Shown: positions 22,123 through 24,399 of the stretch, one piece after another
Layout: each line of letters starts with the position of its first letter
Position numbering within the stretch: the first letter of the stretch is position 1
DNA from: a virus
Lineage: Duplodnaviria > Caudoviricetes
Strand: one strand, 5' to 3'
DNA length: 64,000 nucleotides
IMG/VR virus record: IMGVR_UViG_3300021426_000005
Made by a program: the position numbers and the translations under genes
The notes under the pieces: generated by a model
What the model saw: only the letters and a program-made list of their open reading frames with translations
Database searches by the model: none
Told to the model about the DNA's origin: nothing

Positions 22123-22567
22123 CCCTCCTTAAAAGTGAATTTACTTCGTCTAAATGTTCCCACTTCCAAGTACAATTCGCACAATCATTAAAAGGCGTAG
22201 AACAATGTTCACAAGTTTGACAACTATGGTCAGCACAATCGGTGACTTCACTAAGTATCTCGACAGCTGACTTCAAGCAGGATATCGCTGTATTGAAATC
22301 TTTAGAAATTTTTGCACAAGTTGCATTGCTTTCCGCTATCAGCTTCTTTGCTGAAGCTAATTCTTCGCTCATGGCATCCATACAAACCATATATCCACAT
22401 AAGAAAGTCATTACTTCTGTATCGGTATAGCCGTAAGTATTTTTGATCCGTTCAATGAAACCTTGCAACTGAGTATGAATCTCATTCGCAGATAGTATTT
22501 TTGTATCCATATCATCACTCCTATTCTTTATCGAATTCAGGCAACTCAAGATCAGATATTGCATCAA
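22091..22567 (-). CDS. Hypothetical protein with a Cys-rich C-terminal module (start probably MDTKIL)
   Basis: LKSAVEIL...CQTCEHC...CANCTWKW; C-terminal module shared with the genes at 27987-29270. Confidence 0.55.
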   Translation of the reverse strand: MMQYLILSCLNSIKNRSDDMDTKILSANEIHTQLQGFIERIKNTYGYTDTEVMTFLCGYMVCMDAMSEELASAKKLIAESNATCAKISKDFNTAISCLKSAVEILSEVTDCADHSCQTCEHCSTPFNDCANCTWKWEHLDEVNSLLRRVEYESGTKSS

Positions 22568-22988
22568 ATACAGAACTGAGCTCTTTCAGCATCTGATATT
22601 TCTTAGTGAAAGCATTAAGCTCTGAATATGCAGAAGCAAGAAGTTCAGCATATTTGTCTTTGTGCTTCACTATAACATCTATACGTTCATATGTTTTATT
22701 TTCTGATGTAGGAAAGTAAGCCCTTATCGGAACTGCTTCTGATTCTTCTGTTTCTGGAACAACGCAGAGCATTCTGATGATCTGTCCAGCTTGATGAACT
22801 CTATATTTCTCAGCTGCAACGTCATCATTCCACTCAAATTCGTCATGCAACACTGCTCCAGCATCTCGGTTTGCTTCTAGAAGTGTTTTCGGCGTAAGCC
22901 CTACTGTATCTTCTAAAGCCTTAAACTGAGCTGCCGCAAGATTGGGATCTGCTTTGATCCCTGAGATTGATTTCCATTTATATACCAT
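22521..22988 (-). CDS. Conserved phage protein; accessory gene of the RAMP + GGY-NN array locus
   Basis: LTP..LL.A......LH.EFEWNDD.AAEKYR..QA..IIR motif; starts ~30 nt after the array, AGGTGG RBS. Confidence 0.7.
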   Translation of the reverse strand: MVYKWKSISGIKADPNLAAAQFKALEDTVGLTPKTLLEANRDAGAVLHDEFEWNDDVAAEKYRVHQAGQIIRMLCVVPETEESEAVPIRAYFPTSENKTYERIDVIVKHKDKYAELLASAYSELNAFTKKYQMLKELSSVFDAISDLELPEFDKE

Positions 22989-23015
22989 TTTGCACCACCT
23001 TAAATTAAATATTAT

Positions 23016-23693
23016 GCCTGACCTGCCATACCTTACCTTACCTCACCAAACCCCACACAAACAGAACATACCTTGCCTGCCACAATGGACCTCACCTAAA
23101 CTTGACTCGCCCTGCCGCAACCGACCTTACCTGCCATATCATGCCTTACATCACCATGACTCCCTAACCCAACCTTGCCTGCCGTACCTAACCCCAACTT
23201 AACGGACCGGACCAAAACGGACCTCACCTTGCCTGCCGAAATAGACCATAAGATACCACTCCGCACCCGAACTCACCTTGCCTGCCGTACTATACCATAT
23301 CCAACACTACCACGCCTTAACTAACCAATCCACTCCTGCCACAACATAACTCACCATACCTTAACATAACTCACCACACCTTAACATATGTCATCCTACC
23401 CTACCGTGCCTGCCATACCAAACCCTACACAACCGCACCATAGCACAACTTACCTTGCCTGCCAAAACCTACCACAACTTGACTAACCAAAGCGGACCAC
23501 ACCGAACCAATCCTGCCTCACCAAGCCAAGCCGGACCTAACCCCACCTTTACATACCTCGCCTGCCAAATCAAGCCAAGCCTGAACATACCGTACCTTAC
23601 CACACCACACCAAACCCCAACCCACCAAGCCTGCCCTAACAAAACCTACCACAACTTAACTAACCAAACCTCACCTAACCATCCACGCCTGCC
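23016..23693 (-). repeat. Non-coding array of 12 units GGCA-(GGY-NN)9-14; putative guide-RNA array (VIPR-like)
   Basis: CCTGCC anchors (+ strand) at 23022, 23076, 23130, 23178, 23232, 23281, 23335, 23409, 23458, 23512, 23561, 23630, 23688. Spacings are 54,54,48,54,49,54,74,49,54,49,69,58 (10 of 12 equal 5n+4). Interiors are NN-RCC pentamers. Confidence 0.9.
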
Positions 23694-23702
23694 ATAATCA
23701 GA

Positions 23703-23730
23703 GTAAAGGTAGAAATCAATCTACCTTTAC
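23703..23730 (-). other. Perfect 11-bp hairpin at the RAMP gene/array junction
   Basis: GTAAAGGTAGA-N6-TCTACCTTTAC; the stop codon lies in the loop. Confidence 0.75.
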
Positions 23731-24399
23731 ATGATACATACCGAATTGACCATCACACTCAGGTCTCCACTCGCCTACTCCGCAAACAAGACCTCCGGCG
23801 TTGATCATGTTAATGATGTTTTCCAGAGAATATGTGCCGTTATCATTGTACTTGAGTCTGAATGTAGCTGACCAGTTGCGGAATTCACCACGGTAACGGA
23901 TATCTGCTGTACCCATGCCGATTCTTACCATATCCTCCCTCATTATAGGAGTGTCAGATTCGATTTTCAGCATATCATCGTAATCACTTTCAATGAAGAA
24001 AGCACCTCTGAGCTCGGCCTTAGACTTTGACCAGCCCATACGATATGCGGCTGAAATAGCCGCCTGTTTGAATGCTGTGACAGGAAATCCGAATGTAGCC
24101 CCAGCTTCGATAGCCTTCGTAAAGGCATTCTCGCATTCTTCCTCAGAAGCACCGTCTGCCAGATCAGGCTTATTTGAAAGCCAGTACATGGACTGAATAA
24201 AGTCATCTACCGGATTCTTAGCAGCCTTCTGCTTTCCCTTGGCTTTGCCCTGCTGTGCTTCCAGCATCATACGCTTCGCTTTCTCAGACCAGGCGTGCAT
24301 GATGAGGGGTGAGTCTCCTACCAATGTGACTTCTACCGTCTTCATCTTGATAGGTCTGATCTCTACTACCTCTGATTTTGTTGTCTTTGTGGTTGCCAT
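23716..24399 (-). CDS. Solo Cas7/Csm3-like RAMP-fold protein (putative RNA-guided effector)
   Basis: VTLVGDSPLIMH (beta1 + SPL), GFPVTAFKQAAISAA (P..s.KG helix), RGAFFI, REDMVRI thumb, RYRGEF..W.ATF, and a C-terminal Gly-rich loop GVGEWRPECDGQFG. Confidence 0.75.
   Translation of the reverse strand: MATTKTTKSEVVEIRPIKMKTVEVTLVGDSPLIMHAWSEKAKRMMLEAQQGKAKGKQKAAKNPVDDFIQSMYWLSNKPDLADGASEEECENAFTKAIEAGATFGFPVTAFKQAAISAAYRMGWSKSKAELRGAFFIESDYDDMLKIESDTPIMREDMVRIGMGTADIRYRGEFRNWSATFRLKYNDNGTYSLENIINMINAGGLVCGVGEWRPECDGQFGMYHVKVD

Follow-up and report, generated by a model that had tools for sequence, protein, structure and literature searches.

What is the G/T-rich tract that lies between two minus-strand genes of an uncultivated phage? 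We analysed a stretch of 64,000 nucleotides from a virus (Duplodnaviria; Caudoviricetes; IMG/VR record IMGVR_UViG_3300021426_000005), hereafter the window. It is part of a large contractile-tailed phage, and all of its genes lie on the minus strand, including those for the tail sheath, tape measure, portal, terminase, family A DNA polymerase and a DnaB-like helicase. The non-coding tract at 23018–23693 contains, on the minus strand, 42% G and 31% T, with a GC skew of −0.50. It starts 22 nt past the stop codon of a gene for a 227-aa protein and ends about 30 nt before a gene for a 155-aa protein. The original prediction, made from the letters alone, described the tract as 5-nt steps nested in units delimited by GGCA, in which repeat and spacer are interleaved. 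Our analysis makes it very likely that the tract is a guide-RNA (vrRNA) array of a phage VIPR system, with tail-less guides in the 'staggered array' layout and a presumed role in silencing.

VIPR, which was first reported in preprints of 2026 (10.64898/2026.04.26.720920), is a CRISPR-related system for the RNA-guided silencing of DNA. It consists of a minimal phage RAMP protein (Vipr) and of vrRNAs built from GGY/NN pentamers. The NN letters read double-stranded DNA with one target base skipped per pentamer, and the targets are mostly wobble-aligned coding sequence of competing elements (10.64898/2026.04.26.720920). Seven VIPR types have been distinguished; among them are 'staggered arrays', where each vrRNA shares 1 nt with its neighbour (10.64898/2026.04.26.720920, fig. 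S18). Small-RNA sequencing confirmed the hammerhead-interspersed and single-guide architectures, not the staggered one (10.64898/2026.04.26.720920). Two further preprints deal with the wobble-escape logic and with filament and triplex structures, in which there is one protomer per pentamer (structures: 10.64898/2026.04.26.720927).

To describe the array, we used the hexamer GGCAGG as an anchor. On the plus strand it reads CCTGCC, and it occurs 14 times in 22989–23715 and eight times in the remaining 63 kb. The anchors are spaced 54, 35, 19, 48, 54, 49, 54, 74, 49, 54, 49, 69 and 58 nt apart, and 10 of these 13 spacings equal 4 modulo 5. The anchor at 23111 is a GGCAG pentamer that lies in phase inside one 54-nt unit (35 + 19 nt). 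The array proposed originally is there; its count of 13 anchors was one too low, since the spacings of 35 and 19 nt had been merged into 54. When counted from each anchor (GGCA, then pentamers), the 12 units hold 121 pentamers. Of these, 87% have G at position 1, 92% have G or T at position 2 and 85% have C or T at position 3; the letters at positions 4–5 are near random. The in-phase pentamer score is 0.882, as against 0.53 ± 0.022 (maximum 0.61) in 2000 within-unit shuffles and 0.32–0.61 in the other four phases. When both strands of the 64 kb were scanned, runs of at least four perfect G[GT][CT]NN pentamers were found only at 23018–23680 on the minus strand. The longest of these runs reach 12 pentamers, and the tract as a whole adjoins the gene of the 227-aa protein, in line with the neighbouring non-coding tract of at least four tandem YNNGG (GGY/NN) repeats that marks VIPR. 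A Fourier test of the whole region gave a weak signal, because the 4-nt GGCA step resets the phase at each anchor; the anchor-phased test was used instead. Thus, the two-level periodicity is real and phase-locked, and the unit quoted as an example (23237–23184) reads exactly as quoted. The features of the locus are listed in the table.

Table. Features of the predicted VIPR locus (positions in the window; NN strings are those of the minus strand)
Feature	Position	Strand	Description
155-aa partner (vap-like, predicted)	22521–22988	−	phrog_15946; homologue in 23 of 24 related loci, 28–95% identity
Staggered vrRNA array (predicted)	23018–23693	−	14 GGCAGG anchors; 12 units, one with an internal in-phase anchor; G-G/T-Y-N-N pentamers
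Guide unit U11+U12 (predicted)	23082–23135	−	19 + 35 nt, one in-phase 54-nt unit; NN AA-CG-GC-AG-GA-AA-TA-GA-CC-GT
Guide unit U9 (predicted)	23184–23237	−	NN AA-GA-CC-TT-CC-CC-AA-GG-TA-AC; predicted target, 3' ends of DUF2188 genes; conserved in L023
Guide unit U8 (predicted)	23238–23286	−	NN AA-GA-CG-GC-GT-AT-AT-CT-TC
Longest unit U6 (74 nt)	23341–23414	−	in-phase 20-nt tandem duplication inside
Guide unit U5 (predicted)	23415–23463	−	NN AA-AA-GT-AT-GC-TG-AG-TT-AT; target ambiguous
Perfect 11-bp hairpin	23703–23730	−	contains the vipr stop codon; the first anchor follows after 10 nt
vipr (predicted)	23716–24399	−	227-aa minimal Cas7/Csm3-like RAMP; phrog_4652

A periodic tract of this kind could also be a slippage microsatellite, an unrecognised coding region or a CRISPR array. 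TRF reported only periods 5, 10 and 20 in the array, and the short period-5 and period-10 runs are what a microsatellite would show, but the copies are not identical and the variable positions are fixed in phase. An actinophage counterpart of the array is annotated as protein-coding (Pipp gene 43), but coding is incompatible with a 5-nt period that a 4-nt step resets, and the region holds only short, out-of-context reading frames. As for a CRISPR array, we found neither 20–40-nt direct repeats with spacers nor cas1 or cas2 nearby, and a search of the array against Rfam gave no match. Together, these three readings have next to no chance of being correct. A tRNA scan and a blastn search against cultured phages also found nothing, and a scan for promoters and terminators gave no more sites than shuffled sequences. 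The RNA of the array has no stable fold except the hairpin at the vipr stop codon, which is present in both the MFE and the centroid folds. This hairpin occurs only in the window and in the relative L023, whose Vipr is 98% identical, and is absent from more distant loci. Therefore, it is a feature of this lineage and not of the family. At the GGCAGGC junctions the units abut, and no conserved sequence or stable structure lies between them.

The 227-aa protein has no Pfam match. Its relatives fall into 6,232 metagenomic clusters at E ≤ 1e-3, with 2,954 representatives at 50% identity. A model from the single sequence was unusable (pLDDT 39) and was replaced by an AlphaFold2 model based on an 83-sequence alignment (pLDDT 95.6). 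In a Foldseek comparison of this model with the PDB, the top chains were only of the Csm3, Cmr4 and Cas7 type (E 2e-6). The profile of the 83-member family matches PDB 36pp, 'SUSP1 Vipr protein', with an E of 1.3e-13. The profile alignment sets the G-loop GVGEWRP against GVGDWRP and RYR against SYR, and R170, E210, W211 and R212 of the window protein align with R138, D177, W178 and R179 of SUSP1. R170 and R212 are invariant across the family; the N-terminal 60 residues are unaligned with SUSP1 Vipr. In SUSP1, the four residues hold G1 and G2 of the GGY triplet and contribute to the Y3 pocket (10.64898/2026.04.26.720927). Judging by sequence and modelled fold, the 227-aa protein is a Vipr, that is, a RAMP homologous to SUSP1 Vipr.

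The 155-aa partner has no significant Pfam or PDB sequence match, and in the ESM Atlas it is related only to unnamed viral clusters. Weak matches to TEBP-OB2 and Cpf1-REC2 were below the cut-off and were not used. The gene follows the array on its 3' side in 22 related loci; in L022 it stands between vipr and the array, and L007 ends earlier. In L022 (46–1950) the gene order is vipr, then the vap homologue (515–988), then the array (1476–1950). We take this conserved partner to be an accessory, vap-like protein. Seven genes around the locus gave no Cas, Pfam or PHROG defence matches. In the window, the vipr locus lies among the early genes of the phage.

We compared the window with 24 related loci, namely 22 from IMG/VR (Vipr 47–75% identical) and two Logan contigs (98% and 80%). 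All 24 carry a pentamer array downstream of vipr on the same strand, and clear clusters of GGCAGG anchors were seen in 21. Among the 163 units of these loci and the window, 77% have a length of 4 modulo 5, and unit lengths range across loci from 44 to 99 nt. The information content at pentamer positions 1–5 is 1.18, 0.76, 0.56, 0.08 and 0.07 bits (1065 pentamers, 24 loci and the window); position 2 is G in 66–69% and T in 22–26% in this clade. Turnover of the guides is best seen in the comparison with L023. Here the vipr DNA is 92% identical and the partner (vap) DNA 89%; the arrays, 727 nt in the window and 946 nt in L023, align at 60% and have only about four units in common. In these units the NN string is retained and the triplets drift among GGT, GGC and GGA. 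In U8, for example, the NN string is kept and three triplets differ (GGT/GGC, GGA/GGT); in U11+U12, the first eight NN recur in a unit of L023. Retained NN with drifting triplets is the pattern expected if the NN letters carry information. Among related phages in general, it is the GGY-type triplets that are conserved and the NN that vary.

The same pair of genes was found in cultivated actinophages. The Gordonia phages Pipp, ODay and Ecliptus (37% identity) and many Mycobacterium phages (36%) have both vipr and the partner gene, with the partner downstream. In Pipp, an array of GGC-NN pentamers anchored by GGCAGG lies between the two genes. Pipp gene 43 (L180 2114–2383; MN234179.1 33093–33362), annotated as a CDS for a 'hypothetical protein', is in fact this type of pentamer array, and the same annotation error is probable in related phages of Mycobacterium and Gordonia. 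In Pipp (L180 1–724) and in the 80%-identical relative L024 (63–2047), the vipr locus stands beside an integrase and HTH regulators; this is the immunity region of temperate phages.

The original prediction proposed searching for the concatenated NN letters with gaps of 0–3 nt between the dinucleotides, and checking whether a skipped base falls on codon position 3. For the gap test, we took 91 guides that had not been used in fetching and compared them with 1.1 Mb of fetched target neighbourhoods, at an NN match of at least 88%. Gaps of 0, 1, 2 and 3 nt gave 1, 196, 6 and 1 matches, respectively, and ten shuffles of the NN order at gap 1 gave 1–7. Thus, only the 1-nt gap stands above the other gaps and the shuffles. 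The matches of these independent guides lie on conserved motifs in an exonuclease (phrog_69), an SSB (two sites) and a family A DNA polymerase (phrog_17, two sites). Guides from two loci read one motif of the exonuclease from opposite strands, as expected for DNA targeting and not for RNA targeting. The guides of L003–L012 and the arrays of L004, L013, L018, L023 and L024 converge on one replication module of other phages, made up of the exonuclease phrog_69 (KPQGKPTLV, both strands), a gp2.5/Enc34-like SSB and a family A DNA polymerase. When all guides were compared with the window and the related loci themselves, there was no signal at any gap size, and hence nothing to indicate that the loci target themselves or one another. 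Neither the DUF2188 C-terminal motif nor the Enc34-type SSB motif is encoded in the window.

Among the guides of the window itself, U9 gave the clearest result. Its last nine NN, read as NNxNN, match one IMG/VR provirus, in which the first NN, left out of the scan, also matches. The full 20-letter 1-nt-gap pattern occurs in 12 GTDB species-representative genomes, with about 1.1 expected (596 Gb). It turned out that at all 13 sites (12 in GTDB and the one provirus) the pattern is in frame with a DUF2188 gene (PF09954, phrog_3220), on the C-terminal (N/K)DPFPPKG-stop of its product. Codon position 3 is the one that is skipped, and the base there varies among the matches. The matches are spread over many phyla because the DUF2188 motif is conserved. 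The viral match lies in a real prophage, beside an ArpU-like activator, a primase and an SSB. In that prophage the DUF2188 gene (L025 1344–1562) stands alone on the opposite strand, next to the ArpU-like late activator. This moron-like placing hints at a role of the family in phage conflict.

A second clear case is the guide TA-GC-AA-GT-TG-GA-SC-AA-TC-AW, which is conserved in seven related loci. It matches at least 118 viral contigs, with at most 0.2 expected: a 16-letter scan with U11+12, which gave 14 matches, sets an upper limit of about 3e10 nt on the size of the viral collection, so that a 19-letter pattern would have at most 0.2 chance matches. All of these matches, at least 118, fall on YANVW[DE][PA]KSI of the Enc34/gp2.5-like SSB (PF10991, phrog_112), and the wobble positions are freely variable. 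The skipped base coincides with codon position 3 at both the DUF2188 and the SSB sites, as had been asked of a 1-nt gap. Failure of every gap model against shuffles, or NN invariance in relatives, would have told against the prediction, and we observed neither. The RAMP neighbour, the variation of the NN, the gap test and the codon position of the skipped base together bear out its central idea, which is that repeat and spacer are interleaved and that each unit is a guide of about 18–28 informative letters.

We also considered whether the tract could be a site that a protein wraps, as RNA or single-stranded DNA, without a guiding role, or a DNA-level iteron, origin or packaging site. The TRAP 11-mer binds 11 (G/U)AG triplets. 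With its period of 5 and its roughly 11 triplets, a 54-nt unit resembles such a binding site, and the strong strand asymmetry of the tract would suit a wrapped or DNA-level site as well. However, the range of unit lengths across the loci does not fit a fixed ring, and the neighbouring gene encodes a RAMP with a guide-binding homologue of known structure. Nor does wrapping call for hypervariable NN which, only at a single gap size, spell out conserved motifs of foreign genes. Given the RAMP fold and the target matches, we dropped a TRAP-like ring-binding RNA, and we regard the whole group of non-guiding sites as extremely unlikely.

For the remaining units of the window, the search gave no clear target. 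In the scans of exact patterns, one of about 11 usable window guides, U9, has a statistically clear target. The 18-letter pattern of U5 occurs in 10 viral contigs that form two unrelated groups, one in the C-terminal domain of a tape-measure protein (in phase) and one in a DnaB-like helicase (out of phase); chance alone would give about this many independent groups. U5 also has a position-consistent match of 14–15 of 18 letters within SSB genes. These matches are within reach of chance and of homology among loci, and we claim no target for U5. The 16-letter core of U11+12 has its 14 viral matches at about the chance level. Three of the 14 fall on KRARENYD in giant proteins, where the next four letters miss, and this candidate was rejected; in metagenomes the 20-letter form had no matches in the exact 1-nt-gap scan. 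By the same kind of exact 1-nt-gap scan, U8 and U13 have no match in viral contigs, and U4 has none in viral contigs or metagenomes.

Several units bear traces of change. U6 was lengthened to 74 nt by an in-phase duplication of 20 nt (four pentamers) at 23343–23388, where TRF finds 2.3 copies of period 20 with 96% matches; this shows that in-register slippage is one way in which units change length. The units of 48, 58 and 19 + 35 nt contain frame slips or degenerate pentamers and may be dead. An NN core, TT-TA-AA-GT-AG, recurs in U1 (23636–23693), U4 (23464–23517), U7 (23287–23340) and the first unit of L023, although its register and the surrounding triplets differ from unit to unit. Such recurrence points to several overlapping guides directed at variants of a single target.

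It is conceivable that the array does not guide anything and acts as a decoy or sponge, its G/U-rich RNA titrating the Vipr of a rival phage, or that it is mostly a decayed relic with units that have ceased to direct binding. The frame-slipped and degenerate units, together with the majority of window guides without an identified target, fit such a reading, and solo and decoy vrRNAs have been described in print (10.64898/2026.10.15.759431). But the array adjoins its own intact and highly conserved vipr, with the partner gene. The NN strings of the units held in common with L023 are kept while the triplets drift, one unit corresponds along its whole length to a conserved gene motif, and the guides of relatives give a strong 1-nt-gap signal. 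We consider a decoy or relic very improbable.

Working guides remain our preferred reading, and for them we propose the following course of events. Transcription, the strand used, processing, filament assembly and silencing are all modelled here on the SUSP1 work, which concerns a different VIPR type. By analogy with the SUSP1 system, the array would be transcribed together with the minus-strand genes. Each tail-less guide would span the interval between two successive GGCA-GGC junctions and share one G with its neighbour; in the frame of the unit itself, the closing pentamer is GGCAG, whose last G also opens the following unit. Each pentamer would then be bound by a single copy of the 227-aa Vipr RAMP, which would bury the G-G/T-Y triplet and thereby present the two variable bases. 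A unit of 9–14 pentamers could in this way read double-stranded DNA as NN-x-NN-x, with every third base skipped. Because the skipped base falls on the codon wobble position, the guide would in effect spell a short conserved peptide motif of a gene of a rival element. Binding is expected to silence the targeted gene, and the 155-aa partner would act as an accessory.

A joint reading, which we put forward tentatively and hold to be somewhat doubtful, is that the tail-less guides of this clade are defined only by the GGCA-GGC junction with its one-base overlap, and that they serve as broad, family-level silencers. In each of two full-length matches, all 10 NN of one inter-anchor unit match, which supports guide ends at the junction and indicates that the guides of staggered arrays comprise whole inter-anchor units. 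If so, the guide ends of this clade, which is large and mostly uncultivated (about 6,200 protein clusters), would be set by a cutting or measuring mechanism unlike the tail and pseudoknot of type II. As far as their predicted targets show, the guides are written against deeply conserved peptide motifs, namely the DUF2188 C-terminus, SSB YANVWEPKSI, and motifs of the exonuclease and the polymerase. They may therefore silence the replication modules of rivals family-wide and not act as strain-specific spacers. DUF2188 would then be marked as a gene that matters in conflicts between phages.

What does the locus add to what is known? It is a well-documented, uncultivated example of a system known only since 2026, and the picture of how VIPR works is unchanged by it. 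The published gapped code receives independent support from fresh guides and fresh targets, and the exonuclease, gp2.5-like SSB, family A polymerase and DUF2188 are candidate natural targets of the clade. The new points are modest: footprints of full units in a staggered array, DUF2188 and a replication module as targets, and an array annotated as protein-coding in a Gordonia phage. With the Pipp array and the vipr–vap pairs of Mycobacterium phages, tractable laboratory models may exist.

We compared the locus with known systems, the first of them class 1 CRISPR. The RAMPs Csm3, Cmr4 and Cas7 work with a 6-nt period and one flipped base, whereas here the period is 5 nt and three guide bases would be buried. 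The repeat-spacer arrays of CRISPR contrast with the interleaved repeat and guide letters of this array. Of the class 1 genes, none of cas1, cas2, cas5, cas6, the large subunit or the nuclease lies nearby, so the locus does not belong to CRISPR-Cas.

The type II VIPR system of Escherichia phage SUSP1 comprises Vipr, vap1 and four vrRNAs, with the structure PDB 36pp (10.64898/2026.04.26.720927). Its Vipr is homologous to that of the window, with the (D/E)WR of the G-loop and the thumb arginine conserved. In both, one pentamer per protomer is expected, and both use the GGY/NN code and wobble-aligned targets in competing elements. In contrast, SUSP1 vrRNAs are about 100 nt long with a conserved 3' tail and a pseudoknot, whereas the units of the window (44–74 nt) abut and have no tail. 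The partner also differs: homologues of the window partner occur in actinophage and cyanophage records and in none of the vipr-carrying Escherichia phage records, and SUSP1 has vap1. With neither the 3' tail and pseudoknot nor a vap1 partner, the locus falls outside type II.

The best fit is to the staggered VIPR arrays. Here, too, a phage-borne, minimal stand-alone RAMP is accompanied by one accessory gene and an adjacent GGY/NN pentamer array, successive guides share 1 nt (the G of GGCA-G|GC), the NN are hypervariable, and the 1-nt skip is aligned to codon wobble positions. Pentamer position 2 differs in being relaxed to G or T in the window, and the likeness is one of layout, not of a type number from I to VII. 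The sequence features that characterize VIPR are present: a homologue of Vipr with its contact residues, the pentamer tract, conserved GGY with hypervariable NN, a 1-nt skip with mostly wobble-aligned targets, and a minimal locus with a single accessory gene. Both the mechanism and the gapped-code test are already in print (10.64898/2026.04.26.720920). Thus, the view that this locus is an example of VIPR, and not a new kind of system, is well supported.
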